Shown: positions 2,764-52,363, counted from the first letter of the stretch. The stretch: DNA of 64,000 nucleotides from a virus (IMGVR_UViG_3300045988_144682), one strand, 5' to 3'. The notes: generated by a model not told the origin, from the sequence alone. Program-made: numbers and translations.

Positions 2764-2764
2764 T

Positions 2765-2920: not shown

Positions 2921-3053
2921 CTATTTTATTTGAAATAGCTTATTTAGCCGTTTTCAGACAAAATTATGAGTAAATAATAGAAGTCTTAGTTTCTGGAATT
3001 ACCTATATTACGGTGTTCCAGTATCATAGATAAAATAGTTATTAGGAGTAGTA

Positions 3054-3806: not shown

Positions 3807-3822
3807 ATAAAGGAGAAACAAT

Positions 3823-4898: not shown

Positions 4899-4900
4899 AA

Positions 4901-4909
4901 CTATGTTTT
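4901..4909. repeat. Left arm of short inverted repeat (C5-MTase switch)
   Basis: CTATGTTTT is the reverse complement of AAAACATAG at 5068-5076. Confidence 0.5.
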
Positions 4910-5009
4910 TATGTTGTCGGTCAAGTTCTATCGTGAAAGTCTCAAAACCCTTGATTTCAAAGGCTTTTGCGATACTACGTGTACCGCTAAATAAATCTAA
5001 ACACTTCAT
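4902..5009 (-). CDS. Detached, inverted 5' fragment of the C5 cytosine methyltransferase gene (RBS + first 36 codons)
   Basis: GAAAGGAAG RBS about 10 nt before ATG 5009. Encodes MKCLDLFSGTRSIAKAFEIKGFETFTIELDRQHKNI, i.e. SAM-binding motif I (FxGxG-like LFSGTRS). Confidence 0.7.
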
Positions 5010-5033
5010 TATAGTTTTACTTCCTTTCTCAAA

Positions 5034-22944: not shown

Positions 22945-23283
22945 ATGCGAAAAAAGAATTTCAAAGGGCGATGTGAAAAAATCACAGTCACAAAATCAAA
23001 ATCAATCTGTAAAACCTACGATGATCTACAAAGAAGCTATCTCGAAAAATTAGAAGCAAATTCCGACATTCAAGAAATCCGTATGAATATCGTTTTAGAC
23101 AGCTTGCCAGATTATATGTCAGACTTTGTTTGTGTTAAGAATGATGGTGGTTTAATGGTGCGAGAATGCGTATATCGGAAATTTCTCACTAAACCAATGA
23201 CAGTAAAGTTATTGGACGATTCAAGGAACTATTGGCGAAATCATGGTGTAGAAGATTGGGGGTTAGTTATAGATGCAGAATAA
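22945..23283 (+). CDS. TnsA-endonuclease-like small protein
   Basis: GGAAGGAG RBS. YMSDFVCV...VRECVYRK...SRNYWRNHGVEDWGLVIDAE resembles the TnsA N-terminal restriction-like fold. Catalytic Lys position unclear. Confidence 0.5.
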   Translation: MRKKNFKGRCEKITVTKSKSICKTYDDLQRSYLEKLEANSDIQEIRMNIVLDSLPDYMSDFVCVKNDGGLMVRECVYRKFLTKPMTVKLLDDSRNYWRNHGVEDWGLVIDAE

Positions 23284-25099
23284 TCTTATCAAAATTCAAG
23301 ATGGCACGATTTACCGTATATTACAAGAACGTGACTCAGAATGGCTTGTAATTGATTGTATTAAGCGTACTATGCCGAAATGGATAGAAAGTTTGGCTGA
23401 ATTTGAAAGCGTGCCTGAAAGCGTTTTATGGGTGACTACTGGCATTTATCCGACTGACACAAACACTTTATCAACCAAAGAGAAGAAGTATATGAATGAG
23501 CATTACAGCTTGTTTGCTAGTGTTCTGGGCGTTATTGATGATGAGAAAACGAGAAGCTATATTATCCGTGAGATTGCTGAATTATATAAAGTTACTAAGC
23601 AGACAATACGCAACAATTTATGTTTATATTTAGTTTATCAAGATATTACAGTCCTGCTGCCACACAAAAAAGAAAAACGAAACTTGACCAATGATGAAAA
23701 AAATATGAGGTGGGCATTAAACAAATATTACTACACCACAAAGAAACACAGTATTTCCGATGTTTATACAATGATGCTGAAAGAGAAATACTGTGATGAA
23801 ACTGGTCATCTCAAAGAAGATCATCCTTCTATTCATCAATTCCGCTATTACTTTCAGAAGACCAAGAAGCTGCAAAATTTATATATCAGTCGTGGCGGTT
23901 TAAAGGATTATCAGAAAAATCATAGACCGTTGCTTGGTGATGGTGTACAGGAATTTGCCCCAAATGTAGGTTTTGGCATGTTGGATTCTACAATTTGCGA
24001 TATCTACCTTGTGAATGATGCAAGGGAAGTTGTAGGAAGACCGATATTGACGGCTTGTGTAGATGGGTATAGTGGTATGTGTTTAGGTTATTCGCTTGGT
24101 TGGAAAGGTGGAATATATAGTGTTAAGGGACTAATGCTTAATATCGTTGCAGATAAAAAGGAACACTGTAAAAAATTTGGTATTGATATTGCTGATAATG
24201 TGTGGGATTGCCACCAAATGCCAGGGGTAATGATAACAGATAAAGGATCAGAATATATATCTGAAAACTTTGAACAAATCACAGAACTGGGAATAAGGTT
24301 GATTGATTTACCATCGTACCGACCAGAACTAAAAGGATCAGTCGAAAAATTCTTTGACCTTATACAGAATTCTTTCAAAACCGTGTTAAAAGGAAAAGGT
24401 GTAATAGAGCCGGATTTTCAAGAAAGGGGCGCACACGACTATCGAAAAGATGCTTGTATCACATTGGAAATATTCGAAAAAGTCTTGTTACATTGCATCA
24501 TTTATTATAATAGTGGACGCATACTGGAAAATTACCCATTCACTGAAGAGATGCTTTCCGCTAACATAAAACCATTTGCTTGTGAAGTTTGGAATTATGG
24601 CAGAAACCGTAATAATGCAAACTTGATAGATGTATCTGCAGAGCAAGTTATTATGACACTGCTGCCTAGATGCATCGGCAAATTTGCCCGAAACGGCTTA
24701 AAGGTGAACGGATTACGATATAAGCACCCTAACTATACAGAAATGTATCTGAAAGGTGGGGAGGTTACTGTTGCTTATAATCCGGATTCTGTTTCTGATG
24801 TTTGGCTTATTGATAATGGTGAATATGTAAAATTTGAACTGATTGAAAGTCGATATGAACACATGAATGTGGCGAATGTTGCCTCAATAAACGATGTGAA
24901 AAAAGAAGTTATCAAACAAGCGGAAAATGAAAACAAGCAAGCAAAAATAAATTTGCTAAAAACGATTGAAGTCATAACGGCTGGATCAGTGCCAAAATCT
25001 GTCCCTATAAAGAAAATACGTGAAAACCGTACAAAGGAAGAAACTCGTACACATATTGATTTTACGAAGGGAGTAAAGAAATATGCTACAAGAAAATAA
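23273..25099 (+). CDS. tnsB: DDE transposase, TnsB/MuA family
   Basis: rve-like core with MLDSTICDIYL (D), MITDKGSEY (D), RPELKGSVEKFF (E); long C-terminal domain. Confidence 0.8.
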   Translation: MQNNLIKIQDGTIYRILQERDSEWLVIDCIKRTMPKWIESLAEFESVPESVLWVTTGIYPTDTNTLSTKEKKYMNEHYSLFASVLGVIDDEKTRSYIIREIAELYKVTKQTIRNNLCLYLVYQDITVLLPHKKEKRNLTNDEKNMRWALNKYYYTTKKHSISDVYTMMLKEKYCDETGHLKEDHPSIHQFRYYFQKTKKLQNLYISRGGLKDYQKNHRPLLGDGVQEFAPNVGFGMLDSTICDIYLVNDAREVVGRPILTACVDGYSGMCLGYSLGWKGGIYSVKGLMLNIVADKKEHCKKFGIDIADNVWDCHQMPGVMITDKGSEYISENFEQITELGIRLIDLPSYRPELKGSVEKFFDLIQNSFKTVLKGKGVIEPDFQERGAHDYRKDACITLEIFEKVLLHCIIYYNSGRILENYPFTEEMLSANIKPFACEVWNYGRNRNNANLIDVSAEQVIMTLLPRCIGKFARNGLKVNGLRYKHPNYTEMYLKGGEVTVAYNPDSVSDVWLIDNGEYVKFELIESRYEHMNVANVASINDVKKEVIKQAENENKQAKINLLKTIEVITAGSVPKSVPIKKIRENRTKEETRTHIDFTKGVKKYATRK

Positions 25100-26333
25100 G
25101 ATTATCGAATTATTACCACAAGTGTTATCGGGAGATCGTTTAATTGAAGAACTTGGGTATCTTCCAGCGTATAATGAAACAATAATAGAACAAAGTCAGG
25201 CAAGCAGATTACTGGCATTGTCGGATATATATAGGGTGTATGTGCCATCTGAAATGAGTATTGAAATATATAATAAATTATATTTGGCACTATTACTATC
25301 TATAAAAAAGAAATTCACGGCAGCAGCAGTAAAACAAAGATATGAGAATGCAAAAATGATAAAACGAATGGATTCTGTGGGAATAATCGGTGGTTCGGAT
25401 TCATTCACTATTATTGGTTCATCTGGTATTGGAAAGAGTAGTGCTATAGAAAAATCCATTGGACTCTTAACGGAAAACGCCATTATACAGGATGATGAAC
25501 TGATAGGGAATGTTATTCCTTGCCTGGTTGTACAGTGTCCTTTTGACAGCTCAGTAAAAAGTTTGCTTCTGGAAATTCTCAGAAAAACAGATGAGGTGCT
25601 TGAAACGAATTATTATGAGTCAGCTAAAAAATCAAGATATACGACAACAGATGTTTTAATTGGTTCGGTCAGTACGATTGCATTAAATCACATAGGACTT
25701 TTGATCGTGGACGAAATACAAAATGTGGTTAATTCTAAGAATGGGAAAAGCCTCATTGGATCACTAACACAGTTAATCAATAATAGCGGTATATCTATCT
25801 GCATGGTGGGAACACCAGAAAGTGTGCCATTCTTTGAACAGGCTATGCAGTTGGCACGTAGAAGTGTAGGGTTAAGATATGAAGCAATGGAATATGGCGA
25901 TTACTTCAAATTTTTATGTCAAGTATTATGGCAGTATCAATATGTAAAAGAGTGCGTAGAACTTACAGAAGAAGTCACGTACTGGCTGTATGAGCATTGT
26001 GGGGGTGTTGTTTCTATTCTTATAACATTGCTGCATGATAGTCAGGAAATGGCAATTATGAGTGGCTATGACACCTTAGATTTGACGATATTGGAAGAAA
26101 CATATAAAAGCCGGTTATCTATGTTACACGGATATATTAAGCCAAATATGGGAGCAAAAGCCAGCCAGAAAAGAAAGAAAAGGATGCCAGAAATCAGCAG
26201 TGAAATTCTTTGCATCGAAAACGAGTCCCTAATTTCAGACCTAAGTACAATCGTAAAACAGGGGGCAATGGATATTGATGAAATGATAAATAGAATGAAT
26301 GTGGCATTTATGGTAGAGGTGATTGCATGTTAG
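25083..26333 (+). CDS. tnsC: AAA+ ATPase, TnsC/TniB family
   Basis: Walker A GSSGIGKSS and Walker B LLIVDEIQN; positioned between transposase and TniQ. Confidence 0.8.
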   Translation: MLQENKIIELLPQVLSGDRLIEELGYLPAYNETIIEQSQASRLLALSDIYRVYVPSEMSIEIYNKLYLALLLSIKKKFTAAAVKQRYENAKMIKRMDSVGIIGGSDSFTIIGSSGIGKSSAIEKSIGLLTENAIIQDDELIGNVIPCLVVQCPFDSSVKSLLLEILRKTDEVLETNYYESAKKSRYTTTDVLIGSVSTIALNHIGLLIVDEIQNVVNSKNGKSLIGSLTQLINNSGISICMVGTPESVPFFEQAMQLARRSVGLRYEAMEYGDYFKFLCQVLWQYQYVKECVELTEEVTYWLYEHCGGVVSILITLLHDSQEMAIMSGYDTLDLTILEETYKSRLSMLHGYIKPNMGAKASQKRKKRMPEISSEILCIENESLISDLSTIVKQGAMDIDEMINRMNVAFMVEVIAC

Positions 26334-27700
26334 GGATTGTACCAAAGTTATACGAAGATGAGCTTTTTTATTCATGGCTGTGCCGGTATTATGTGGCAAA
26401 AGGTTTTACGTCCAATTCTCATTTTATAGAGGAAGTAACCGGGAACAACAGATTGTATTTGAATAAAGAGTTTGTGCCACCATTCAAAGCAGAGTTTCGC
26501 CATGACATTGAAAAAATATTTGGTTTTGAGAATGTTATAAGAAATCATACTCTATACGGACAAGAAGCACGTTTCTATACTGAGGAAGAAATAAATAATG
26601 TGTGGGAGCTTTTTCAGACAGATTCCTTTGATATTAGAACATTATTTAGAATGCAGAAATCAAAAGAGGGGCATTCTCTTAGTTATTGCCCTTTGTGTGT
26701 TAAAGAAGAACGGGAATCTATCGGTGAATGCTACTGGCATAAATCCCACCAAATACAAGGTATAGATATCTGTTTGAAACACAGGTGTAAGCTAAAAGAA
26801 TCCGAAATAAGAGTTGGTTCAAAACATAATGATATGATATCTCCGGCAGAATGGTGGTGTAATGATTCGGAAATAGAAATGGTAGAAAACACGCATTGCT
26901 TGAAATATTATAATTATGTGTGGGAAATTGCCAATGCCCCTTGTAACGGGATGGATGCAAAAAAGATTATAGCTCTGTTATACAAGAAGCTGAAAGAAAA
27001 AGGCTACCGGACACTAGGACAACGGCTTTTAGGGATTATGTCAGAAGATATGGAGCAGTATTATGAGGAAATGGGCGTATCTTATGAAATGTGTTATTCA
27101 ACATTACAGACAATATTTGCAAAGTATAATTATCCGTTTATTGCCATTATCCAAACAGCGTACTTTTTAGGTGTGACAGCAGAAGAGTTACTGAATCCAG
27201 TTGTTAGTGATTTTGATATTGCAGATGAGGAATGTAGCCACTATGTCAGTGACCGTAATAATACAAATATCAATCGTGATCTGATGGATCGAAATTATCT
27301 GAAATCTGTTAAAAGAGAATGTGAGTTGATATATAGTGGTCATTATCATGCAAAAGGAAGACCGATGAAAGTGTCTGCACTTAAAGTATGCAAGAGAGTT
27401 GGAATTACACATACTTTGATTAAGTTTATGCCACTTTGCAAGGCTTGTATTGATGAATATGCAGAAACGGATGACGAATATCATGCGAGGATTATTGTGT
27501 GGGCTTATAGAAAATTGAAAGCGGAAAAAACGGACGGTGAAATAATTCGTGTGTCAGAAATTCATAAACTTACAAGTGAATGGAAGGAAAATATCATAAG
27601 AGCATTGCCATATATGGCGAAATTTGCGGATCAAGAAATGATAAATGAGATAGATGCATTAGCGAGAGAGAAGCATTGGCATAGAAATTTAGTGGACTAA
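26327..27700 (+). CDS. tniQ: TniQ/TnsD-family target selector
   Basis: N-terminal LYEDELFYSWLCRY; zinc module CPLC...HKSH...CLKHRC. Confidence 0.75.
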   Translation: MLGIVPKLYEDELFYSWLCRYYVAKGFTSNSHFIEEVTGNNRLYLNKEFVPPFKAEFRHDIEKIFGFENVIRNHTLYGQEARFYTEEEINNVWELFQTDSFDIRTLFRMQKSKEGHSLSYCPLCVKEERESIGECYWHKSHQIQGIDICLKHRCKLKESEIRVGSKHNDMISPAEWWCNDSEIEMVENTHCLKYYNYVWEIANAPCNGMDAKKIIALLYKKLKEKGYRTLGQRLLGIMSEDMEQYYEEMGVSYEMCYSTLQTIFAKYNYPFIAIIQTAYFLGVTAEELLNPVVSDFDIADEECSHYVSDRNNTNINRDLMDRNYLKSVKRECELIYSGHYHAKGRPMKVSALKVCKRVGITHTLIKFMPLCKACIDEYAETDDEYHARIIVWAYRKLKAEKTDGEIIRVSEIHKLTSEWKENIIRALPYMAKFADQEMINEIDALAREKHWHRNLVD

Positions 27701-32155: not shown

Positions 32156-32428
32156 CTATAATAAAGAACTCATTTCGATAATGCAGCGTTTCATTTTTTC
32201 CATTTCTGTCATTTCCCGAATGATAAATCTTGTATGACCGTCTTCTTGCCAAATATTTGTACATATCATATCGGCATAGTCAACGCCACCTATATTAACT
32301 GTTGTTAAATTGTTATCAGACAAAAGTTCCATATTAACCACATCGTCTGTTATATAATTGTTTCCATTCATTGTGGCGTGAATCTCTGTTTTGTCTGCGA
32401 GGATAATATTGTAAATAGTATTTTCCAT
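32156..32428 (-). CDS. Hypothetical protein
   Basis: GGAGG RBS; the start lies inside the last 95 nt of the RT ORF. Confidence 0.5.
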   Translation of the reverse strand: MENTIYNIILADKTEIHATMNGNNYITDDVVNMELLSDNNLTTVNIGGVDYADMICTNIWQEDGHTRFIIREMTEMEKMKRCIIEMSSLL

Positions 32429-33602
32429 CTATAAAACCTCCAAATAAATCAAAATAAAGAAGATTCAAATTATCTCGTTGTATTTTACTCATTAAATGAG
32501 CATGACCGCCCATCCATGCACGAAACATATTCTCAACTTCTTCTTGTGTACGTTCTCCACGTATAACTTTTAGACTAAGTTTCTTTAATTTTCGCCTCAT
32601 ATCAACAATTCTTCTTGGATTTATTTTTCTAATAACCCTACCAGTATCGGTAAGAGAATAGGTGATTTGCAGAAATTTATAGTAATCTGATAATTTTACG
32701 ATTCTTGTCTTTTTGCGATTGAGAGTCATACCTAATTCTTTTGCTTTTTCTGCAATTTCTATTTCAAGCTGTACTAAAAATTCTCTGTCACGGTGGATAA
32801 CATAACTGTCATCCATATACCTTCCATAAAATTTCTGACTTTTTACAATTTTTACAAAATTATCTACAGGTGTTGGATAAAAGATACCTATAATTTGAGA
32901 ACATTGATCCCCAATATTTACAGATTTGCGCATATACTTTTCGCCAGTATGAGCAGATTTAGGAATTTTCAATCTATATTCAGTTGAATTAAATGGAACA
33001 TTCATACAATTTGAAAATTCTTCATCATTCATATACGAAACATCAATTTTAAAATTATCAAAAATCTGTTGTAACAACCAAAGAGAAAATTCATCATTCA
33101 CATGCTTGGCAATTTCTCGATAAGCTATATCATGTGGAATATTATCGTAAAACTTACTATAATCCATCAATAAAATATATCCGTCATTACCATACATTCG
33201 ATAATATTTATGTAAATGTTCTTCAAAGCGTTTTCGACTAAAATCAATGCCTTTGCCCTTAAGAGAAGCACCATTATCATAGATAAGATAATCTATGAGA
33301 GATGGAGATAAAACGTTATCACAAAGAGAATGACGAATTACTCTGTCAGACATTTGTAGTCCTGTAATTGGTCGAACTTTACCACGTTCATTGATAATAA
33401 ATTCAGAAGATGGTTTTGAATGATATTCTCTATTCTTTAACAAATCCTTGGTTGATACAATATTAGGCAAAAAGTCAATTCCATACTTTTGTACTTGTGG
33501 TTTCCAATCAGAATCTTTCTTGGCTGCGAGAAATGCAGAATATAATGAGTTCAAATCATATACAATATTATCTACATTGTCTTGAGCATTTTCTTTATTC
33601 AT
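32334..33602 (-). CDS. DGR reverse transcriptase
   Basis: LLMDYSKFYDNI, DGR-type IGDQCSQ motif and catalytic YMDD; lies immediately 3' of the template repeat. Confidence 0.9.
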   Translation of the reverse strand: MNKENAQDNVDNIVYDLNSLYSAFLAAKKDSDWKPQVQKYGIDFLPNIVSTKDLLKNREYHSKPSSEFIINERGKVRPITGLQMSDRVIRHSLCDNVLSPSLIDYLIYDNGASLKGKGIDFSRKRFEEHLHKYYRMYGNDGYILLMDYSKFYDNIPHDIAYREIAKHVNDEFSLWLLQQIFDNFKIDVSYMNDEEFSNCMNVPFNSTEYRLKIPKSAHTGEKYMRKSVNIGDQCSQIIGIFYPTPVDNFVKIVKSQKFYGRYMDDSYVIHRDREFLVQLEIEIAEKAKELGMTLNRKKTRIVKLSDYYKFLQITYSLTDTGRVIRKINPRRIVDMRRKLKKLSLKVIRGERTQEEVENMFRAWMGGHAHLMSKIQRDNLNLLYFDLFGGFIDGKYYLQYYPRRQNRDSRHNEWKQLYNRRCG

Positions 33603-33778
33603 TTCATAATCTTTTCTTTCATAATCATATTTATTTATATTTGACGTATATAGCAATCAGTCGTAACGAATTGCATCGTCTTTATCTTTTTGCGTATTAT
33701 ATAACACACGCAAGGACAACTTCTCCTTTCTTCGTTTCCTGTATCTGCATATAGCATAGTTAAACAGGCAGAAGAAAT

Positions 33779-33891
33779 CGGGCGAACACCATTAGAATTA
33801 GAGGCGTTGTTGTTGTTCGCATTACCGTTGTTGTTCACATTAGCGAAGTTAGTCGCACTCCTCACACCACGAAGCCAATAGTTGAAGCGAC
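33779..33891 (-). repeat. DGR template repeat (TR)
   Basis: 113 nt, 99/113 identical to 34671-34783. Asn(AAC)-rich when translated. The ORF-track entry 33635..33865 is just its translation. Confidence 0.9.
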
Positions 33892-33935
33892 AAAACAGTA
33901 CATAAACATGTAGAAGTAGCCCTAATAAAACAGAA

Positions 33936-34565
33936 TTATGAGGTTGATAAATCAGGTGTTATGATAGTCACCCATAATTCTTTTAACAAATTATAAGATT
34001 TACGCAACTTACTTTCAGTAAGCTGCCCAGTTAATTCTTTCTCAAGAATCTTCTTACGAACCTTATTATCAGATTTACGCCATCCTTTAATAAGTTGTTG
34101 TTCATGAACAATCATTTTTGTGATTGTCTCATATTTTTCTATATTTACATGAAGAGTAGTAATAACATACTGCAATTCCTGGATCAAATTTTCACAATAT
34201 CCAATTGCTAAATCTTGGTGAAGTCTACGTTCATCGCATTCACAAAGATGTTGCGGATATATTTCATTTGCAAGAAATATTTCATGAATCATATTTCTGC
34301 ACAAATTTAATATTGATTTTTGTTCATCTGGTATGAACCATTCAATGAACGCTTCATAGCGTTCCTTATTCTTTGCTACAGATTTATCATAACCATCCTT
34401 TTGTTGTTGACTCCATTTACTGTATGTTTCTGGTTTAGGCTTTTCAACGTATTCTTTTAATCCAAATTTACGAAGTGCTAAATCAGTTATTACAGTTCTA
34501 ATTTTATATGCATAATGTTCAACTTCAAAAGGAGAGGGCTTTTGATTAGCTTTTAGTACAGACAT
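33936..34565 (-). CDS. avd: Accessory variability determinant (Avd)-like helical protein
   Basis: Position between target gene and TR; basic, helical, 209 aa (longer than BPP-1 Avd). Confidence 0.55.
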   Translation of the reverse strand: MSVLKANQKPSPFEVEHYAYKIRTVITDLALRKFGLKEYVEKPKPETYSKWSQQQKDGYDKSVAKNKERYEAFIEWFIPDEQKSILNLCRNMIHEIFLANEIYPQHLCECDERRLHQDLAIGYCENLIQELQYVITTLHVNIEKYETITKMIVHEQQLIKGWRKSDNKVRKKILEKELTGQLTESKLRKSYNLLKELWVTIITPDLSTS

Positions 34566-34595
34566 TTTAATCTCCTTCGATTTGTAGCTGTAACA

Positions 34596-34617
34596 CCACC
34601 CACCTAAAGGTGGATGG
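34596..34617 (-). promoter_or_regulatory. Hairpin downstream of VR (DGR target-recognition-type stem-loop)
   Basis: 9-bp GC-rich stem (one G-T pair) with a 4-nt loop, 36 nt after the target-gene stop. Confidence 0.45.
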
Positions 34618-34652
34618 GATTACAGATATTGTTTTATATTTCCGTCAACATC

Positions 34653-35585
34653 TTAATTAACGAAGAAGAGCGGGCGAACACCAAAAGAATGAGAGGCGTA
34701 GCTGTCGTCCGCATCACCGTCGCTGTTCACATCAGCGAAGGCAGTCGCACTCCCCACACCACGAAGCCAATAGTTGAAGCGACGGTGAATGTATTCTGGT
34801 GCTAATGCAAACAATGGAAGCTGAGAGTTGATACATCCAACTTCATAGCCACTATCAGCCCATACTTTAGTTCCATATACCATTACTTCTGACATCAGTT
34901 CAACTTTGCAGTCATACCACGCCCAACCCGAAGATTGTCCGTCAGCAGTAGCATTCGGTAAAATATCTCTGTATGATATAACATGAGAAGATCCAAAATC
35001 ATTTACAATTTTCTGAGTAGCTTGTGCAAGGTTAGATGTTCTCATATCTGAGTTTGCATATGCACCAGTTGTATTATTTGCTGTGCTTCCAGATTCATAC
35101 TGTCCGCTATCTGTATTATGCATTTGTGCGTTATATAAAGCAGAATCAGGAACAAGGCACATATTATTACCAATTGACACATTATCACCACAGTTTTTAA
35201 TAATGTTAAAACCAGCAATTCGGTAAACAGTACCATTGATCGTCAGATAATCTCCAACATATAAATCATCAAAAGTTCCATCTTGAATAGCTTTTGACAT
35301 AGCTGAAGTATAAGAAGTCCCAAGATTCTTGCCTCTAAAAATAGAGTTGTGACCAGCAGCACTGTTTCTTACAGAACTTTTATAAAGTTCATTGACAGCC
35401 GTTGGTAACGTTTTTGTACCTTGATCGAGTCCATAAGTTTTTGAAGATAATTTGTTTAAAATTGTTGTTGCGAGATTCGCCAAAGTGATACCTTTAGTTC
35501 CGTTTGCGCCATCGACAGCAATGACATCAGAATCGGAAGGAGTGGTAACACTAGAAAGATCTTTTATTCGAGTCGTATTTGCCAT
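34653..35585 (-). CDS. DGR target: tail-fibre/receptor-binding protein with C-terminal variable region
   Basis: C-terminus YWLRGVGSATAFADVNSDGDADDSYASHSFGVRP carries the VR; the N-terminus is fibre-like. Confidence 0.85.
   Translation of the reverse strand: MANTTRIKDLSSVTTPSDSDVIAVDGANGTKGITLANLATTILNKLSSKTYGLDQGTKTLPTAVNELYKSSVRNSAAGHNSIFRGKNLGTSYTSAMSKAIQDGTFDDLYVGDYLTINGTVYRIAGFNIIKNCGDNVSIGNNMCLVPDSALYNAQMHNTDSGQYESGSTANNTTGAYANSDMRTSNLAQATQKIVNDFGSSHVISYRDILPNATADGQSSGWAWYDCKVELMSEVMVYGTKVWADSGYEVGCINSQLPLFALAPEYIHRRFNYWLRGVGSATAFADVNSDGDADDSYASHSFGVRPLFFVN
34671..34783 (-). repeat. DGR variable repeat (VR)
   Basis: The 3' end of the target ORF. All 14 differences from the TR fall at TR adenines (T on the + strand). 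Confidence 0.9.
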
Positions 35586-37541: not shown

Positions 37542-40500
37542 CTAAGAATTTATTGCCCCCCCCAAGTACCTAAATGACAGGTTGCCATTTGAACGTGGGA
37601 TAAAAGCAAATTTTCCAAGTTGCAATCTATCTAAGATTTCAGCATCCGTTACATACAGCTTATTGTTACTGAAATAAGCAACTTCATCTGTTCCTTGGTA
37701 GAAACTTAACTTTTGCTCGCTCAACAGCATTGATAACTGCATAGACGGATCTTGGCTAGAAATCTTTCTTGTAATACGCAGTCCGGCATCTTCCATAGAG
37801 AAACATTCAGTCGTTTGCTCTATACTTTCAACTCTTCCGTTTATGGCATCAACACGAACAATGTATGTATTGACATCAGTTTGTACCTTATCAACTTGTT
37901 GTTGTGTCGTGACATTACTTTTCCGGATTTCTTCTATACGCCCATCTTCGCCGACCAAATCATCAAAGTCTTTTCTATTTGAAACAACATCATTGATTAC
38001 ATCAGAGATAATCTTCTTCAATTCGTCAGACATATCACCAGTAATCTTATCTGCGTAATCTGTTAAATCCTCTGGAGCAGGGTAGTAGTCTGTAGGACGG
38101 TTTCCTTTTTCCAACTGGATATAATCAATTGCATAATAGTCATTACTGTTCATGTTATCTGTAATTCTAAGCACATTTGATGTCACCCCAACATTGCCAG
38201 TAGAAATCAACTGACCTGAAGATGTAACAAACATGTCACGATTGTCAGATACAATATCAAACTCTGTATCTTCTAAAGTCAGGACGGTGTAAACCTTGTT
38301 CCATCCAGATGTAAGCTGTATCTGTTGCATATCAGTTGTCTGCATTACACCATTCGTATTTGCAAGGCAAACATTGAGTGTCATATTTTGACGAGAATAT
38401 ACATTCATTGATACCGTCAGTTTCGTTCCAAGTTCCGTAGCAACCAAATTGTCCGTATATACTTCGTAGTACACAGCCTTGGCAGCATTTGAGCCAGTTC
38501 CAGGCTGTACCTTGATTACACGCTTTGCATCAATTTCAGCTTCAGAAATAGAATATACTTTGTCAGTTCCATAATAATGACAACCTTCAAGCTGGTTCGA
38601 TTTCTTCAACAGGTTTCTTGCTCCGATAAGCATGTTTGAACTATCAACTAAGATAGGAACTGTCTGAATATCAAGTAGATTATCTTCAGTTGGAATTTGA
38701 TTAGCTTTGTGCATTTCTATAGTGTAAAAAGCTGGCATGTTAGCCTCACCATAAATAGTAAATATTTGTTCGGAAATATTATTTGATGAACTTATAATTT
38801 CTTCTGTACGATTATCACTATAAGTTTTTGATATAATAAAACGGCATGGGTAAACAACTCGATCACCATCCCCATCTCTATAATATCCTTTTGCTTTTAT
38901 CGTATCTGGTGTGATAATATTATTTCCGTCAATTTTTACAGCACTTGTATCAAGTTCTAAGAAATAAGTTCTTCCGGCATCACCAACATCACCTTGTTTT
39001 GCATTAGTATATGAGACAGTAGAGTTGCCATCTGAATATTGAACGGTTGTTCTTGTCCAAAGGTACATGCCATCTACTAAATCAGGGATTTCATCTGACC
39101 ATTTATTCGTTACGAATAAATTAGAAGAATTATCAATCAATGATTTTCCATCATTTGTAACAAGCTCAACTGATTCTGGAGGAACAGAAGAATTTTCTGT
39201 TGTGGTGATATATTCTACTTTAGTAGAAGTGATAGTAACATCATCACCCTTGATTTTTGACCAAGTGTAATCTGTGGGATTTTTACTATCTGTCTCAATA
39301 TTGTCAGTATATTGTCCGATATATTTTTTATTTGTTCCATTAACTGTATCAAAACCAGTTTTACCGTCAGAGGAATCGGCATAAGCTATATGAATATATC
39401 CGTTTTCACCAGGAACGCCATTTTCACCTACATATTTAGACCACTTATATTCGCTTGATTTTGTTGGTGCGATTGAAGTGGTAGTTGATGCTATACCAAC
39501 ATATTTTGTCGTTGATGATGGAGTTGCAGTCATTCCAGTACCATTTGCATCAGTAGCATAACGTACCCAAAGGTAAGAAGATGTACCATCGAAATAATCT
39601 ACACCCTTAATAGGTGTCTTTCCGTCCGTTCCTTTAATTAAAGTCCACGTATATTTTGTCGAATCATCACTATCGGCTTCAATATTATCGGTATATTGAC
39701 CAATGTATTTTTTACCCATTCCAACTGTTTTACTAAATCCAGTTTTGCCATCGGCAGAGTCAGCATAAGCAATATGAACATATCCATTCTTTCCAGGAGT
39801 TCCGTTTTCGCCTACATATTTCGACCATTTATAATTGCTTATTGTAGTTGGCGCAGTGTTTGTTGTGGTAGTCGCAGTACCTATATATTTTGTATCTGCA
39901 CTTGGAGTCGTAGTCATACCACTTCCATCAGAATTAGCGGAGTAACGAATCCATAAATATGAAGATGTACCGTCAAAATAGTCAACACCTTTTACTGGTG
40001 TTTTACCATCATCACCCTTGATTTTTGACCAAGTGTAATCCTTATAATTTCCACTGTCTGCTTGTGTATTGTCGGAATATACTCCAATATAAATTGCACC
40101 AGTAAATTCGGATTTAGAGAATCCTTCCTTACCATCAGCACTCATGGCGTAAGCAAAATGGACATAACCATTTTTACCTGGAATACCATCTTCACCATCT
40201 TTACCAGCGAACTTAGACCATACATAAGAATTTGCAGAGTCAGGATCTTTTATTACATCGTTGACACAAATACCTATATAATCAGAAGGAATTTCTGAAA
40301 TTTGGTCATCTGTAGGATTTGGATAAGCAGAATATTTTATATGGACATAATTACTTGAACCATCTCTACCATCACGTCCATTGATACCGTCTTTACCGTC
40401 AGTTCCATCAATACCTTGTCTCGATACACTGTATGTGACGGTCGAATTTCCGTCTGAATAATTTACAGTAGTTCTCGTCCAAAGATAAGAACCTTCAATT

Positions 40501-43500
40501 ACATATGGAATAGAAGATAACCATTTATTCGTTGCAATTTCATTTCCATTACTATCAACAATATTTTTGCCATCACTGGTAGCAAGAGAATTTGCTTGCG
40601 GTGGTGTAATTCCGTTATCGCTAGGAATATATACAACTTCCGTAGAAGTAATATATATACTATCTCCGTCTTTACCATCATCGCCCTTAAATTTTGACCA
40701 TGCATATTTTTTATAATCTGTACTGTCTGCTTTGATATTGTCAGTATATACGCCTATATAGGTTGCACCTTCATACTCACAAACGTTAAAGTTTACACTT
40801 CCATCGGCAGATTGAGCATATGCGAAATGCACAAAAGAATCTTCACCATCTTTTCCATCTAAACCAGGTGTTCCATCAGCACCGTCCTTACCTGAAAAAC
40901 GACTCCAAGTATAAGAACTTGCAGTAATAGGATCGTTTAAATTTGTATCAACACAAATACCAATGTACGCAGCCGGAACTTCTGTCAACATATCATCAGT
41001 AGGATTTGCTACAGAACTATATTTAATATGAATATAAGTGCTAATACCATCCTTACCATCTTTTCCTGGAATACCTTGTATTCCTTGTCCACCAGTTGCA
41101 CCAGCTTTAAGTTTTGCAATACGCAGCTTTTTACTTATGGCAATTTTACCCATATAAATGAGATCAAATACTACTTCTCCACGGTCGGTAGACAGTCCCT
41201 TTAAGGTGTAGCGATATTTAGTTTTATCCCATTCACCAGTAACACCACTTGTTGCAGTGATTGTCCAAGATAAGTCTGATGACTTTGTGATATCAGTGCT
41301 TCCAGAAAATACAGTTACATTTGTATAGCAATCCGTAAAATTACCACCATTACCATTGGAATCAGTCGTAATGCCTATATATTCATTGTCAAGTTGAACC
41401 ACAAGAGCAGATGCTTCTTGCTTGATTGTTTTATCAATATAAGAGCCAAGATCATCACTGGTTGTCATCTGAATATGTTTGCCGTTAATTTTGATATTTC
41501 CATCATCATCGACATATACATATTTAGTGTAAGATCCATCTTCGTTCTTTCGTTGCAAAGTAAACAAATCTTTATTTGTATCGTTTGCGTCCGAAGTAAC
41601 AGTAAAACCATTTTCGTCAATTTTTACTGAACCAGAAGTGTTATAGATTCCAACTTTATTTCCGAGAATAATGTTACCGACAATTTTATGAGCGATAATT
41701 CCATAGTCCTCTTTGTATGTACCAGATTCAGGATCAAAGTAAATATACTTACCAAGTCCAGTTTGAACAGTCTTCCAACCATCGTTTGTATAGTAAAAGC
41801 CATGATTGATTATTTTTGTTTGCTCAGAACTGTAATCATCACCAAACTCATTTTTTTCACGCATGAGCAAACCAGTCTCATCCACAACCATATTTTGATT
41901 GTCTGCAGCATTTACAATTTTCTTGTTAGTAAGGTTTAATCCATTTTCAACCATATCCATGATTTGTTTGTTGGCATTATTACCCTTATTCGCTTGATGC
42001 TGCACCATTGAATATGATGTTGACATAGACTGAGCTTGTGATAAGATACTCTGGATATCAGAAGCAGAATTTAATCCATAGGTTACATCAGAAAATTCTA
42101 CATTCAAAGAATCAAGATTATCATAATCAATCTTATATGAAGTCAAACGCAATTTATAAATTGTTTCATCAATCTCTATACGAACCCAATTACCAACATC
42201 AAAATTTACTAAGAGTGGAGAAAATGTTGCATCACCTTTCACGAAATATAATTGATCGTGTGACACAATATTTACACCAGCCAAAGTAACAATTGGAACA
42301 GGAGATGATTCAACATCTTGTTCTTTTACGAGTAAAAAGTTACTCAAATTACAACTAATGGTGTGTTGCAAAGTAGCAGATTTTACAATTTCACGTTCCG
42401 CATTTTTGATAAATTCTTTGGCTTGCATAATAAGTTCTTTGTCTGACAATCCATCAGAAATGAAATTATCATTCTTATATGTGTCATCACGTCTAAATGA
42501 ACAAAACTCAGTCCAAAGTGAATTCCCAAGATAAGTATGCAAATCCAAATTATTCGCAATAACCTGACGCTGCTTTTCGATATAATCAAGAACACCTTCT
42601 GGATTACTTTTAGAACCACGCAATTTCAGAATTTCAGATTCACGTTCCCTCAACTCATCTTCAATCCATATGCTTTTACTGTAATATGGATAATACATTG
42701 ATTCATACATATCATTTTCTGGATCAGCAATACCTTGTTGAATTAGAATGTCTAAACAACCTCTTACAATACTTGCAAGAATATTCAAATTATCGACACT
42801 ATAAAAGGACAAAGCCTTTTTGAATTCAGCCTCGTCCTTTTTAAATAAAGCAACTGTTCCAGTAGCATCAACATCATTTTTTTTCATTGCTTTTTCAAGC
42901 TGACATTTAATAAAATCCGATGTAGCATCTGATACATATATTGTTATAATTGATGTGGTTGCCTTATCATTCTCATCTGCATAACTTGATAGAGTGATAG
43001 TTCCTTTCCAAACATTCCCACTGTATGAATCATTTGTTGCTGTAATTCTATACAATGATGTGTCTACAAAAACTTTCGCATAATTTTGTAGAGCCAAAGT
43101 AACCGTAGATACAGACGCTTTATTGGCATTTTGAATACCAAGAGGTGAAAGCGTATTGGTAGTCAATTTCTTGATTTCTTGTGCAGCCGTTGTTTTCGTC
43201 CCACGTTCTGAGACTGGTGCAAGAGTAGTTTTTAATAAACTGTAAAAATTTAAAGCAGAATAATATAAATCTGTTAAAGAAGAATACCCTACAATTGGAT
43301 ATTTCACATTCATTAAAGAACTATCGTACAACTTATATTTATTGATTAGTGTATTGTAATCACTAATAACAGTAGATGGAATATCAATTTTTTTATCTGA
43401 TGAATATGAAGCATATTCTTTTTCGTAAGTAGATAATTTGTCACGTAATGTTTTTGACATATCGGCACGAACAGAATCACTAAAATACCAAATATATTGA

Positions 43501-44420
43501 CTTCCGCTTGGATTTATATTTCTAATTGTGGCTGTCATTAAATCATCACCAGCGACCAAACGAAAACAGTTTTTTACTTCATCCTTATTTGAAGAATACG
43601 AAATATTTCCGGCGAAATTTTCATGGCTTAAAAAGATACCACTATCTGAACCATATCCAAATTTAATATTAGCAGAGTTACATTTGGTACACATTTTGTT
43701 TGTGAATGTTCCACGTTCTCCACATTCCATACAAACATCGTTTAAATCATAAACAGAAATTGTCCTGTGGATTTTTCCATCATTATTGACAGATTCGCCA
43801 TAAACAAACAAACATTCTACTTCATTTGCGATATCATCAAATGCGCCTTTTATAGTAGAACCATCCCATGAAAATGTTCTTTGCAAATTAGCGATAGAGG
43901 AATCTACATGAACAATTGTATAATGGGATGCTTTATCTTTTAAAATTCTATCTAATGCAGATCCTTCTGGATTAGTTGGATCATATATAATAGTAGGGGT
44001 GTAATCGTCCCTTGCAATATCATCCTCTGTGTTGATTTCAATATCATTTAAACTAAGCTGTCCAAGTTCAGCTTCTTGTAAATGAACACCTTGACAGTGT
44101 TTTATAGTAGCATCATCCTCATCTGTTTCAACGGAAAGTTCATACCACGGATTAAAAGATGCTGTGTCAAGATGTGGGATATAGATCAATCTAAAGTCTC
44201 TAATGTCGTTCCATAATTCACATGTAACATTATCAACCTTTTTATAAACATCAAAAGTAATTTCAGCAGCTTGTGCAAGATCATTTTTATTGGTAAGTGA
44301 TTGAACATTATGAATAATTCCTTGTTTTGTCCCACCACGATAAGCCAATACGAGATCAGGTGCAATAGGCTGTCCATCTGGACTTATTTCTATAAGACCA
44401 CCATATAAAGAAGTATTCAT
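37542..44420 (-). CDS. Giant tail-tip/minor structural protein (2292 aa) with collagen-like triplets and repeated modules
   Basis: Follows the Dit-like gene; GIQGIPGKDGKDG triplets; about 6 YVHFAYA..ADG...YIG.Y.DN..ADS...Y.WSK.KG modules. Confidence 0.8.
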   Translation of the reverse strand: MNTSLYGGLIEISPDGQPIAPDLVLAYRGGTKQGIIHNVQSLTNKNDLAQAAEITFDVYKKVDNVTCELWNDIRDFRLIYIPHLDTASFNPWYELSVETDEDDATIKHCQGVHLQEAELGQLSLNDIEINTEDDIARDDYTPTIIYDPTNPEGSALDRILKDKASHYTIVHVDSSIANLQRTFSWDGSTIKGAFDDIANEVECLFVYGESVNNDGKIHRTISVYDLNDVCMECGERGTFTNKMCTKCNSANIKFGYGSDSGIFLSHENFAGNISYSSNKDEVKNCFRLVAGDDLMTATIRNINPSGSQYIWYFSDSVRADMSKTLRDKLSTYEKEYASYSSDKKIDIPSTVISDYNTLINKYKLYDSSLMNVKYPIVGYSSLTDLYYSALNFYSLLKTTLAPVSERGTKTTAAQEIKKLTTNTLSPLGIQNANKASVSTVTLALQNYAKVFVDTSLYRITATNDSYSGNVWKGTITLSSYADENDKATTSIITIYVSDATSDFIKCQLEKAMKKNDVDATGTVALFKKDEAEFKKALSFYSVDNLNILASIVRGCLDILIQQGIADPENDMYESMYYPYYSKSIWIEDELRERESEILKLRGSKSNPEGVLDYIEKQRQVIANNLDLHTYLGNSLWTEFCSFRRDDTYKNDNFISDGLSDKELIMQAKEFIKNAEREIVKSATLQHTISCNLSNFLLVKEQDVESSPVPIVTLAGVNIVSHDQLYFVKGDATFSPLLVNFDVGNWVRIEIDETIYKLRLTSYKIDYDNLDSLNVEFSDVTYGLNSASDIQSILSQAQSMSTSYSMVQHQANKGNNANKQIMDMVENGLNLTNKKIVNAADNQNMVVDETGLLMREKNEFGDDYSSEQTKIINHGFYYTNDGWKTVQTGLGKYIYFDPESGTYKEDYGIIAHKIVGNIILGNKVGIYNTSGSVKIDENGFTVTSDANDTNKDLFTLQRKNEDGSYTKYVYVDDDGNIKINGKHIQMTTSDDLGSYIDKTIKQEASALVVQLDNEYIGITTDSNGNGGNFTDCYTNVTVFSGSTDITKSSDLSWTITATSGVTGEWDKTKYRYTLKGLSTDRGEVVFDLIYMGKIAISKKLRIAKLKAGATGGQGIQGIPGKDGKDGISTYIHIKYSSVANPTDDMLTEVPAAYIGICVDTNLNDPITASSYTWSRFSGKDGADGTPGLDGKDGEDSFVHFAYAQSADGSVNFNVCEYEGATYIGVYTDNIKADSTDYKKYAWSKFKGDDGKDGDSIYITSTEVVYIPSDNGITPPQANSLATSDGKNIVDSNGNEIATNKWLSSIPYVIEGSYLWTRTTVNYSDGNSTVTYSVSRQGIDGTDGKDGINGRDGRDGSSNYVHIKYSAYPNPTDDQISEIPSDYIGICVNDVIKDPDSANSYVWSKFAGKDGEDGIPGKNGYVHFAYAMSADGKEGFSKSEFTGAIYIGVYSDNTQADSGNYKDYTWSKIKGDDGKTPVKGVDYFDGTSSYLWIRYSANSDGSGMTTTPSADTKYIGTATTTTNTAPTTISNYKWSKYVGENGTPGKNGYVHIAYADSADGKTGFSKTVGMGKKYIGQYTDNIEADSDDSTKYTWTLIKGTDGKTPIKGVDYFDGTSSYLWVRYATDANGTGMTATPSSTTKYVGIASTTTSIAPTKSSEYKWSKYVGENGVPGENGYIHIAYADSSDGKTGFDTVNGTNKKYIGQYTDNIETDSKNPTDYTWSKIKGDDVTITSTKVEYITTTENSSVPPESVELVTNDGKSLIDNSSNLFVTNKWSDEIPDLVDGMYLWTRTTVQYSDGNSTVSYTNAKQGDVGDAGRTYFLELDTSAVKIDGNNIITPDTIKAKGYYRDGDGDRVVYPCRFIISKTYSDNRTEEIISSSNNISEQIFTIYGEANMPAFYTIEMHKANQIPTEDNLLDIQTVPILVDSSNMLIGARNLLKKSNQLEGCHYYGTDKVYSISEAEIDAKRVIKVQPGTGSNAAKAVYYEVYTDNLVATELGTKLTVSMNVYSRQNMTLNVCLANTNGVMQTTDMQQIQLTSGWNKVYTVLTLEDTEFDIVSDNRDMFVTSSGQLISTGNVGVTSNVLRITDNMNSNDYYAIDYIQLEKGNRPTDYYPAPEDLTDYADKITGDMSDELKKIISDVINDVVSNRKDFDDLVGEDGRIEEIRKSNVTTQQQVDKVQTDVNTYIVRVDAINGRVESIEQTTECFSMEDAGLRITRKISSQDPSMQLSMLLSEQKLSFYQGTDEVAYFSNNKLYVTDAEILDRLQLGKFAFIPRSNGNLSFRYLGGAINS

Positions 44421-51341: not shown

Positions 51342-51347
51342 CAATAA

Positions 51348-51375
51348 TAATCTTGCAAATAATAATAGTAATAAA
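51348..51375. repeat. 28-bp inverted repeat, left arm
   Basis: TAATCTTGCAAATAATAATAGTAATAAA; 26/28 complementary to 51961-51988. Confidence 0.85.
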
Positions 51376-51385
51376 CAGATTTTTG

Positions 51386-51394
51386 TGATATAAT
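51386..51394 (+). promoter_or_regulatory. Extended -10 promoter element (TGaTATAAT) for the antisense ORF
   Basis: Same TGa-TAnAAT form as the promoters at 8361 and 14302; about 30 nt before the RBS AAGGAG (51415-51420). Confidence 0.4.
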
Positions 51395-51426
51395 TATAAA
51401 TAATATCAAACAATAAGGAGAAAAAT

Positions 51427-51960
51427 ATGGCACTTATTAAATGTCCTGAGTGCGGAAAAGAAATTTCCGACAAATCAAAACATTGCATTCATTGTGGATA
51501 TCCACTTGATGAATTAAAAATAAATAATACCAACCAACTCTACAAAATTGTATTAACAGATCATGGCAAAAACAAAGTTCAAACAATTGCCAAAATCCGT
51601 GAATTTACCGGCATGGGATTAGCCGAAGCAAAGAAATTTTCTGAATCTTTACCACAAGTAATTCAATCTGGTATCAACATGGATGAATGTAATTTGATAC
51701 AGTCACACTTTTTATCAGTCGGTGCAACCGTAGAAATTCAGCCAGATAATGAATCTGTTTCAAAAAACACAGTTTTAGAGAATAAACCAATAGCAAAAGC
51801 TATAGTTAAAGACAAAAATGTAATTACTTGTCCGAAATGTGGATCTACTGCTATCGTAACCACAAATAGAGGATTCTCTATAATGACTGGATTTATTGGC
51901 TCTGGCAGTCCACGTAATGTATGTCAAAATTGTGGATTCAAATGGAAACCAAGAGCATAA
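51427..51960 (+). CDS. Zinc-ribbon / ribosomal L7/L12 C-terminal-domain-like / zinc-ribbon protein
   Basis: CPECG...CIHCG; AKIREFTGMGLAEAKKFSESLP resembles the L7/L12 CTD; CPKCG...CQNCG. It is the only convincing plus-strand gene in the late arm. Confidence 0.75.
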   Translation: MALIKCPECGKEISDKSKHCIHCGYPLDELKINNTNQLYKIVLTDHGKNKVQTIAKIREFTGMGLAEAKKFSESLPQVIQSGINMDECNLIQSHFLSVGATVEIQPDNESVSKNTVLENKPIAKAIVKDKNVITCPKCGSTAIVTTNRGFSIMTGFIGSGSPRNVCQNCGFKWKPRA

Positions 51961-51988
51961 ATTATTACCATTATTATTTGCAAGATTA
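51961..51988. repeat. 28-bp inverted repeat, right arm
   Basis: ATTATTACCATTATTATTTGCAAGATTA, starting right after the stop of the 51427 ORF. Confidence 0.85.
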
Positions 51989-52363
51989 GATATGCTACTT
52001 CGTGTATTGGACTACAATGACAGTTTGGTTACTGACGAGCATATCAACATGACTATGATATAATCATGTTTTATCCGACTGTCTATCACACTTGCCTATG
52101 GCAAGCGAACTCCCTTACAGTCTGTGAACCTTCCCGTTTATCACAAATTCCAACGTGATACAAACCTATAAAATAGGAGAGGGGATTGGATGCTGACTAT
52201 CCATTGTCCTATACAGTATACTTAGCATTATTTTTTAGCATATATACATTTTGACGTATAGTGTAAATTCAAACTTTTTTCTGCATTTCTGCGACTATCA
52301 CGCCTATCCGTTAGGATTACGTTGTAGCGTTGAATTGTTAGGATTTCCCAGCAGTTTGAAAGT

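Follow-up and report, generated by a model that had tools for sequence, protein, structure and literature searches.

A diversity-generating retroelement, almost certainly intact, that rewrites the end of a tail-module protein in a large phage of gut Bacillota

Does the reverse transcriptase gene carried by the viral sequence IMGVR_UViG_3300045988_144682 belong to a complete diversity-generating retroelement (DGR), and if it does, which protein is rewritten and how might the cDNA find the right copy of the repeat? We addressed these questions in a stretch of 64,000 nucleotides (nt) of this virus (the window, by which the whole stretch at its full length is meant), where the cassette lies on the minus strand between positions 32334 and 35585. 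An initial annotation, made from the sequence alone, had described a complete DGR targeting the C-terminus of a tail fibre. We consider it almost certain that the region is an intact DGR of a large phage of gut Bacillota. Its mutagenesis is directed at the last part of a tail-module protein of 310 residues, where 17 codons are rewritten. The system is of a well-known kind, and its family is abundant among phages and prophages of gut Bacillota.

The evidence starts with the repeats. A repeat search of the window returned a single direct repeat of 113 nt, 88% identical between its two copies, the template region (TR, 33779-33891, minus strand) and the variable region (VR, 34671-34783, minus strand), which confirmed the coordinates, length and 99/113 identity given in the initial annotation. 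On the minus strand, where all cassette genes are encoded, TR and VR differ at 14 positions (nine A to G, three A to T and two A to C). All 14 fall on TR adenines, as had been claimed, and the computed alignment contains no substitution at any other TR base; given 30 adenines among the 113 TR bases, the hypergeometric probability of this outcome is 5.3e-10. The 30 adenines make up 13 AAY codons and four codons with a single A, and every one of them occupies codon position 1 or 2 of the target frame, for which simple arithmetic gives (2/3)^30, or about 5e-6. No substitution of TR adenines can create a stop codon, and full randomisation of these adenines would yield 1.15e18 variants of the DNA and 3.7e17 of the protein. 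Both translations quoted earlier, of TR and of VR, were reproduced. At their 3' end the two repeats share GGTGTTCGCCCG, and the VR ends 15 nt before the target stop codon, while the TR is non-coding and lies 176 nt upstream of the start of the reverse transcriptase (RT). A pattern search allowing any base at each TR adenine found no further VR copy in the 64-kb window.

The RT gene (32334-33602, minus strand, 422 aa) most likely starts at ATG 33602 and not at TTG 33656. Both motifs that had been named for it, IGDQCSQ and YMDD, can be read in the open reading frame (ORF), which holds VNIGDQCSQIIG and GRYMDDSY. The protein matches RVT_1 (E = 2.6e-14) and PHROG 1423 'reverse transcriptase' (E = 4.9e-58). 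Its best match in the PDB is 8ub7_A, the DGR RT of phage BPP-1, with two aligned blocks that include IGSLTSQ/IGDQCSQ and YMDD; a fold-search listing describes 8ub7 as a DGR ribonucleoprotein reverse transcriptase. Among solved structures the RT is nearer to this DGR enzyme (E = 1.8e-9) than to a group II maturase (9e-4), a placement based on similarity searches and on about 110 homologous loci with adenine-specific repeat pairs. As a separate observation, RT relatives at 50-58% identity align only up to query residues 383-392 of 421, and the C-terminal tail of the RT may be specific to the window's subgroup.

Between the target and the TR lies an Avd-like accessory gene (33936-34565, minus strand, 209 aa), assigned by its PHROG match and its helical model. 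Residues 84-185 match PHROG 3206 'Avd protein of DGR' (E = 1e-7), and residues 1-173 align to the ~162-aa gene found at the same place in relatives (E = 5e-55); compared with that gene, the window protein carries an additional 15-aa insertion and a 36-aa C-terminal tail (residues 174-209). The AlphaFold2 (AF2) model is all-helical, with a predicted local distance difference test (pLDDT) score of 87, and its top Foldseek neighbours are 2rld, 2gsc, 4dwl (the Avd of BPP-1) and 8ube_D (the Avd chain of the DGR ribonucleoprotein), of which the first are PF05635-type bundles. The 209-aa protein was also considered as a fusion with the ~102-aa ORF of relatives; this idea was rejected because the profile of that small ORF gave no match (E = 0.11) and the window has the ORF elsewhere.

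The target gene (34653-35585, minus strand) is a separate 310-aa ORF downstream of a tail protein with DUF859 and Peptidase_S74 domains, and the VR makes up its last ~40 codons. The C-terminal scaffold reads YWLRGVxSATxFAxVxxxGxAxxxxASxSxGVRPLFFVN. In gene order the target has the DUF859 and Peptidase_S74 tail protein and a 2,292-aa host-specificity protein before it and the lysis genes after it. Here the initial annotation held in part: the complete DGR was borne out, fully or in part, by all the DGR tests that were run, while 'tail fibre' is a positional reading only, because neither the target nor its family matched any tail-fibre family in Pfam, PHROG or the PDB. PDB sequence and profile searches with the target gave no match, and the target has no detectable sequence similarity to Mtd of BPP-1. 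The database holds 1801 target homologs; DUF6273 (PF19789) was matched at E<=0.01 by 25 of 42 of them (best 1.2e-5), and a precomputed PF19789 match is present on some homologs. By analogy with published models of other DUF6273 proteins, a C-type-lectin fold is expected for the target. A 296-aa protein of phage nd12 was taken as 'target2', as a possible link between the target and the published C-type-lectin models, and was discarded as an unrelated protein; the stretch of nd12 that was covered contains only the tentaclin, which matched the profile of the window's family across the VR scaffold only. The 2,292-aa tail protein itself (37542-44420, minus strand), two genes upstream of the target, contains many internal repeats, eight stretches matching PHROG 10693 'host range and adsorption protein' and collagen-like GxxGxDG runs.

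Comparison across samples, between related contigs in public metagenomes, indicates that the element diversifies in nature. Clustering at 90% identity places the window's exact target protein in a group of 2,783 distinct sequences. When 15 members of this cluster are compared from residue 268 onward, variation is confined to the 17 codons that contain an A in the TR, all of which vary (residues 271, 272, 278, 279, 281, 282, 285, 287-289, 291, 293-296, 299 and 301), and none of the 26 other codons varies. In a set of 63 full-length sequences, comprising 62 homologs of 310 aa and the window protein, the entropy was 2.47 bits at A-containing codons, compared with 0.24 bits at other VR codons and 0.57 bits in the rest of the protein. 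The same contrast can be seen between single sequences, since targets P0014 and P0147 show no difference in residues 1-270 and 11 in residues 271-310. Over 4,982 nt, the viral contig L001 matches the window at 98.7% identity, and it has an identical TR; 20 of the 61 differences lie inside the 113-nt VR, 19 of these 20 at TR adenines, and divergence outside the VR is 0.84%. Avd homologs from dozens of contigs are 97-100% identical. Twenty VR differences beside an identical TR at 98.7% identity, together with the 2,783-member cluster, are hard to reconcile with anything other than recent and repeated diversification in this lineage.

The cassette has many relatives. RT relatives were found at 54 genome loci, mostly of Lachnospiraceae and other Clostridia, including Hungatella hathewayi DSM 13479 and [Ruminococcus] torques ATCC 27756, and on at least 169 viral-contig stretches; the closest genome relative is an RT 82% identical in a Ruminococcus metagenome-assembled genome (MAG). 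Among the loci that were fetched, adenine-specific TR/VR pairs were present at 45/55 genome loci and 65/80 viral loci (~110 in total), and in the viral set 1001/1027 mismatches fall at A. The usual order in relatives is target, ~102-aa ORF, ~162-aa avd, TR, ~110-nt spacer and RT. The window and four relatives at 81-82% identity form a subgroup in which the target is followed by avd and the TR, the spacer before the RT measures ~150-190 nt (176 nt in the window), and a small-ORF homolog comes after the RT. This homolog (32156-32428, minus strand, 90 aa) matches the profile of the relatives' ~102-aa ORF at E = 3e-14, and its start is overlapped in another frame by the last 95 nt of the RT gene (32334-32428); it is probably a phage tail-module gene and not part of the DGR. 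A megablast of the cassette against deposited phages gave no DNA-level match, and the closest deposited RT, 40% identical, is that of Acutalibacter phage Fontainebleau (ON453893.1). A few RT relatives at 48-57% identity (L012, L034, L039, L040 and L054) lie on contigs labelled Parabacteroides distasonis, Fermentimonas, Succinivibrionaceae and Bacteroides; these non-Bacillota labels could reflect mis-binned phage contigs in MAGs or a broader host range.

How secure is the identification as a functional DGR? Several results weigh against it. The Avd-like protein has no Pfam match, and its Foldseek E-values are weak (0.1-1.3, with probabilities of 0.8-1.0). The window target itself matches DUF6273 below the gathering cutoff (E = 0.0058, 16.9 bits, cutoff 23.5) and only over profile positions 127-170 of 172, the last 44; its AF2 model, built with 42 homologs, has a pLDDT of 58 overall and below 50 across residues 231-305, which include the VR, and Foldseek with this low-confidence model returned no usable match. 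One could ask whether the locus is an ordinary diverged duplication beside an unrelated RT, such as a retron, a group II intron or a defence RT of the defence-associated RT (DRT) or Abi kind. The top NCBIfam match of the RT is indeed a group II RT/maturase model, at 56 bits with a cutoff of 300 (retron models are also far below cutoff), and PADLOC gave only weak generic RT/DRT matches; neither resource has a DGR-specific RT model, and neither discriminates DGR RTs. Such a duplication would have to produce adenine-only mismatches (P = 5e-10) and to do so again at ~110 homologous loci, next to an Avd-like gene and an RT with IGxxxSQ whose best structural relative is the DGR RT of BPP-1. Moreover, no Rfam family, those of group II intron and retron RNAs included, reached its gathering score anywhere in the window. 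We regard a chance duplication as having a negligible probability. A second alternative is that the DGR is structurally complete and inactive in this genome, the VR differences among contigs being historical. The activity of the window's own copy is presumed from its intact parts and from differences between closely related contigs, a point against claiming activity outright; besides, the window VR differs from the TR at only 14 of the 30 TR adenines, and nothing is on record for the exact window target protein in the contig index. Set against this, the RT, avd and TR are all intact, as is every RNA helix, L001 has accumulated its 20 VR differences despite an identical TR and 0.84% divergence elsewhere, and the 90% cluster comprises 2,783 distinct sequences, which together make inactivity very improbable. 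An element that is intact and apparently active remains the reading on which we build below.

The RNA helices just mentioned emerged from the region around the TR. Between the window and its 82% relatives, the TR and ~145 nt downstream of it are far better conserved than the flanking coding sequence. In a neutral MAFFT alignment of 52 unique spacers, RNAalifold predicted 23 pairs, 13 of them with compensatory changes. A model with four spacer helices (P1-P4) has 96.8% of its alignment cells paired, compared with 37-61% when the partners are slid, and 12 pairs changed on both sides, compared with 0-3; none of 500 shuffles matched it on four of five measures. Two of these five covariation measures are robust to relatedness according to the tool's own trials. 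A long-range duplex of 11 bp joins an upstream strand, GGGCTACTTCT (33912-33922, minus strand), located 14 nt beyond the avd stop codon and 20 nt short of the TR, to a downstream strand, AGAAGTTGTCC (33714-33724, minus strand), which is cPRT-Stop-like by analogy to the avd:spacer (Sp) duplex of BPP-1. In a whole-region alignment of 62 sequences this duplex is 96.8% paired, compared with 48-58% when slid, 7 of its 11 pairs changed on both sides (84 cells), and on all five measures, the two robust ones included, 0/500 shuffles matched it.

Between these two strands and beyond them, all on the minus strand, lie the spacer helices. P1 (33727-33777) pairs TTTCTTC (33777-33771) with GAAGAAA (33733-33727), as supported by covariation and by the minimum free energy (MFE) fold. 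Its loop contains a subgroup-specific inserted hairpin (CCTGT, 33768-33764, with ACAGG, 33742-33738), a 26-nt insertion present in the window and its 81-82% relatives. P2 and an A-rich stretch span 33681-33713; the helix pairs TTGCGT (33713-33708) with ACGCAA (33695-33690), is 100% paired with 3/3 aligned pairs changed on both sides, and is followed by the A-rich run at 33689-33681. P3 and P4 (33643-33680), supported by covariation and the MFE fold, consist of GACG/CGTC and of GCAAT/ATTGC with an inner 2-bp stem and a TACG loop. An unconstrained MFE fold of the window RNA recovers the long-range duplex and P1-P4. The order of elements is thus upstream strand, TR, P1, GG, downstream strand, P2, A-rich stretch and terminal stem-loops. 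In the DGR RNA of BPP-1, cryo-electron microscopy (cryo-EM) has described a TR:Sp template:primer duplex, G57 C58, the avd:Sp 'cPRT Stop' duplex, a short stem-loop, A-minor adenosines and further protein-binding elements (10.1101/2023.10.23.563531; PMC6182149), an order equal to that in the window, and the same authors predicted such RNA elements in 207 DGRs, including those of Bacillota (10.1101/2023.10.23.563531). This architecture is already known; the contribution here is the covariation support for it in a distant, AT-rich phage lineage. P1 is best read as the analogue of the template:primer duplex. It was also considered as the 'Avd-binding stem-loop' and rejected in that role, as its position relative to the TR and the long-range duplex fits the template:primer duplex of BPP-1 instead. 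The insertion in the P1 loop lies where BPP-1 carries its Avd-binding stem-loop. The Avd insertion (residues ~60-75) occurs in the same subgroup as this 26-nt insertion (33738-33768), and the larger family lacks both, a pairing that may reflect RNA-protein co-evolution.

How, then, might the cDNA choose the VR? The direct similarity of TR and VR ends at GGTGTTCGCCCG, and immediately beyond it the two 3' flanks diverge, with 5-12 of 24 positions alike. The initial annotation had read the shared GC-rich block as resembling the initiation of mutagenic homing (IMH) site. That both repeats end in this block is correct; it is nevertheless nearer to the (GC)14 of BPP-1, and the IMH-like part is the VR-specific 3' flank, CTCTTCTTCGTT (34659-34670, minus strand), unlike the TR flank in sequence and able to pair with the RNA by the predicted priming site. 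The DNA immediately 3' of the VR has its reverse complement in the RNA, in a strand that comprises the 3' portion of the P1 loop together with the 3' arm of P1. In the window, TTCTTCGTT (34667-34659) is the exact complement of RNA AACGAAGAA (33736-33728) over 9 nt (shuffle P = 0.009), and the putative primer strand forms 11 bp (-11.2 kcal/mol) with the VR flank versus 9 bp (-7.9 kcal/mol) with the TR flank. Exact complements in the larger family are 5-13 nt long, with a mean of 8.6, and lie 8-16 nt after the VR, and the flanks change together with the RNA across loci, as in CCTAACCAACAG/CTGTTGGTTAGG, TTTAACCGAT/ATCGGTTAAA and ACTTAACCAATGA/TCATTGGTTAAGT. Pairs from the same locus reach a complementarity score of 9.74, compared with 8.57 +/- 0.21 for cross-locus pairs (0/5000 permutations reach 9.74), 4.6 for shuffled guides and 3.9 in direct orientation. 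The VR flank is paired more extensively than the TR flank at 41/41 unique loci of the larger family (13.7 vs 6.7 bp) and at 4/4 of the window subgroup. In a deliberately crude alignment of guide and flank, 74% of cells pair, compared with 37-58% when slid, and the covariation score beats 500/500 shuffles. The complementarity of primer strand and VR flank is established at the level of sequence; the covariation is graded as suggestive, because the two robust measures did not beat the shuffles (32/500 and 145/500).

A hairpin also follows the VR (34588-34625, minus strand). The 9-bp stem and 4-nt loop previously noted at 34596-34617 are present as CCATCCACC-TTTA-GGTGGGTGG, and the structure is larger than claimed: the inner stem (34609-34617 with 34596-34604) has eight standard pairs and one T.G wobble around the TTTA loop, and is enclosed by an outer stem of 6 bp. 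Folded as DNA, the hairpin has a free energy of -10.3 kcal/mol (z = -4.5), and 0/200 shuffles fold as well. According to Guo et al. (2011), the hairpins of phage DGRs have a GC-rich stem of 7-10 bp and a 4-nt GRNA loop, and lie 4-34 bp after the VR (PMC3240598). In a simple scan, about half of the relatives showed, 21-28 nt beyond the VR, a GC-rich hairpin of different sequence with a 5-nt CTTGT loop; phage Fontainebleau has one ~26 nt after its VR. A role of the hairpin in homing is plausible by analogy.

We propose, tentatively and with rather less than even confidence, that target choice and directionality are set by RNA-DNA pairing: the RNA strand 5' of the priming adenosine would anneal to sense-strand DNA 3' of the VR, and the RNA-linked cDNA would line up as a continuous antisense strand across the VR boundary. 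The competing explanation, to which we would give only a little short of an even chance, is that the complementarity is a by-product, for instance of common IMH/IMH* ancestry together with P1 self-complementarity or of coding demands on the final codons of the target, and that there is no functional guide. Several findings tell against the pairing proposal and in favour of a by-product. The 9-nt match in the window is short and AT-rich; taken alone, the window is weak evidence because most of the match follows from the similarity of the VR flank to the P1 5' arm, which in the window subgroup accounts for the TTCTTC part and leaves only 3 nt beyond it. The VR flank is protein-coding, and the two robust covariation measures are not significant. 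A by-product fits less well with the larger family, in which the match, at up to 13 nt, reaches into the P1 loop, where it has no direct-repeat counterpart, and it does not readily explain why own-locus pairs beat cross-locus pairs in 5000/5000 permutations, or why the VR flank is the better paired one at every unique locus of both groups. In a more radical variant of the proposal, the VR flank may itself be rewritten from the RNA primer strand during homing, which would likewise give a locus-specific match. For the hairpin, the competing account is a transcript-level element between target and avd, such as a terminator, attenuator or mRNA stabiliser, instead of a DNA structure for target recognition in the DGR. 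Stem length and loop size are within the range of Guo et al.; the loop is TTTA and not GRNA and the distance is 53 nt and not 4-34, the hairpin lies in the target-avd intergenic region, and about half of the relatives have no comparable hairpin in the simple scan. However, no intrinsic terminator was called at the hairpin on the minus strand and it has no T-tract, GC-rich hairpins of differing sequence recur after the VR in the other relatives and in Fontainebleau, and the pattern of Guo et al. is that of a structure kept while its sequence is free (PMC3240598). We consider a purely transcript-level role less likely than not, and a part of the hairpin in homing plausible.

From these elements a working model can be assembled, in which three parts (priming site, cDNA stop and mechanism of integration) are taken over from BPP-1 by analogy, a point that weakens the model. 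A transcript of approximately 33925-33640 would bind RT and Avd. The P1 3' arm would act as the primer strand, with the predicted priming adenosine at or next to 33727, paired to T33777, and copying would start at the TR 3' end (33778/33779). The RT would misincorporate opposite the 30 TR adenines, and cDNA synthesis would stop at the long-range duplex. The RNA-linked cDNA would then replace the VR, possibly assisted by the downstream hairpin, and better pairing of the primer strand with the VR flank (34659-34670) than with the TR flank would give the process its direction. The outcome would be up to ~3.7e17 variants of a ligand-binding surface, presumably for adaptation to host receptors.

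With respect to the prototype BPP-1 (mtd-avd-TR-brt), the gene order target-avd-TR-RT, claimed earlier to be that of BPP-1, was confirmed from the ORFs and repeat positions. The two systems also share a VR at the 3' end of the target, the adenine-only signature, an RT with IGxxxSQ and YMDD, an Avd-like helical protein, a hairpin after the VR and a primer strand whose complementarity to the VR flank exceeds that to the TR flank (for BPP-1, PMC5703328). They differ in many respects. The window RT is distant from that of BPP-1 (E = 1.8e-9), its Avd has 209 aa versus ~128 aa and escapes recognition by Pfam, and its target bears no similarity to Mtd. The upstream strand of the long-range duplex follows the avd stop codon in the window, whereas it lies inside avd in BPP-1; TR/VR similarity ends at the GC-rich block in the window, whereas in BPP-1 it runs through the 21-bp IMH. 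The window hairpin has a TTTA loop and is 53 nt from the VR, and the host belongs to an AT-rich gut Bacillota lineage.

DGRs with DUF6273 (C-type-lectin-like) targets have been described in the gut phages nd4 and nd12, in the Faecalibacterium phages Lelie, Roos, Pioen and others, and in Toutatisvirus (PMC10743442, PMC11792537, 10.1101/2024.10.15.618418). As in the window, the target is small, the VR lies at the C-terminal end of the DUF6273-like region, and the cassette is located in the tail or accessory module of temperate gut phages; their RTs are 27-33% identical to that of the window. In contrast, the DUF6273 match of the window is weak and limited to the last 44 profile positions, and the VR pattern search of the 64 kb revealed neither a second target nor a tentaclin or Ig-domain target. 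The proteins of nd12 have no significant similarity to the profile of the window's family beyond the VR scaffold.

The closest cultured counterpart is Fontainebleau, an inducible prophage of Acutalibacter muris. It carries the same cassette, with a target of 311 aa (39% identity along the entire length), an Avd-like protein of 184 aa (32%) and an RT (40%), and with the same flanks: tail genes before it and, downstream of the RT, a homolog of the small ORF (45%), then holin and lysin. Its TR/VR pair is 94 nt long, with 16/19 mismatches at A, and the RNA architecture is the same with a different duplex core (GGGTGACTCTT / AAGAGTCATCC). Unlike the window, which belongs to a larger genome, Fontainebleau is a GC-rich phage of 39 kb. 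The complete DGR lies at 2713-5535 of ON453893.1 (locus L136), where GenBank annotates the RT only, and the paper that named the phage makes no mention of a DGR.

Prophage DGRs of Lachnospiraceae and other Clostridia (for example in H. hathewayi DSM 13479, [Ruminococcus] torques ATCC 27756 and Enterocloster lavalensis) share with the window an RT at 50-58% identity, a homologous Avd, a similar target C-terminus (GVRP...), adenine-specific TR/VR pairs and a homologous spacer RNA. They differ in having the ~102-aa ORF between target and avd, whereas the window homolog follows the RT. Their Avd, of ~162 aa, does not carry the 15-aa insertion, their spacer of ~110 nt does not carry the P1-loop hairpin, and their GC hairpin has the 5-nt CTTGT loop at 21-28 nt from the VR.

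As a DGR, the locus adds little, because tens of thousands of DGRs have been catalogued and gut Bacillota phages with DUF6273-type targets are already described. Its value is that of a clean, complete and naturally diversifying example with many relatives. The pattern linking primer strand and VR flank bears on how DGR cDNA finds the VR and on why transfer is one-way. The idea of pairing is not new, as Naorem et al. (2017) proposed pairing of the primer strand with the IMH for BPP-1 from a single sequence (PMC5703328); the comparative support, at 45/45 unique loci, is new and would be the first of its kind. Fontainebleau offers a cultured, inducible relative in the OMM12 mouse consortium and appears to be undescribed as a DGR host, and since it carries the same cassette, the predictions made here are testable.

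Regarding the genome around the element, the window is phage DNA throughout, with ~35% GC, and no tRNA genes were found in it. Contigs with an identical target protein are as long as 172-174 kb, an indication that the phage far exceeds 64 kb. Structural and lysis genes make up the minus-strand half, with a two-piece tape measure, tail proteins, the DGR and an endolysin. The plus-strand half (1-28000) encodes radical SAM, RNA ligase, polynucleotide kinase (PNK)-like, DHH phosphoesterase and guanylate-kinase fusion proteins and the anaerobic ribonucleotide reductase NrdD, an auxiliary set typical of large phages. A transposition module (23273-27700, plus strand) encodes a 608-aa transposase with a Mu-transposase C-terminal domain (PHROG 310), TniB (PF05621, 2.7e-13) and TniQ (PF06527, 4e-18); it resembles the tniABQ set of Tn5053/Tn7-like elements and adjoins the lysis end of the structural module. 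The tape-measure gene is apparently split (45606-54541, minus strand), as the ORF at 52364-54541 matches positions 223-948 of PHROG 4211 and the ORF at 45606-51488 matches positions 974-2384. The gap of ~870 nt between them holds a 177-aa ORF on the opposite strand (51427-51960, plus strand), whose product combines a zinc ribbon at the N-terminus with a ribosomal protein L7/L12 C-terminal domain (PF00542, 2.4e-17). Finally, a tyrosine integrase gene (55011-56045, minus strand; Phage_integrase, 1.8e-17) is located amid tail and structural genes and not at a genome end.

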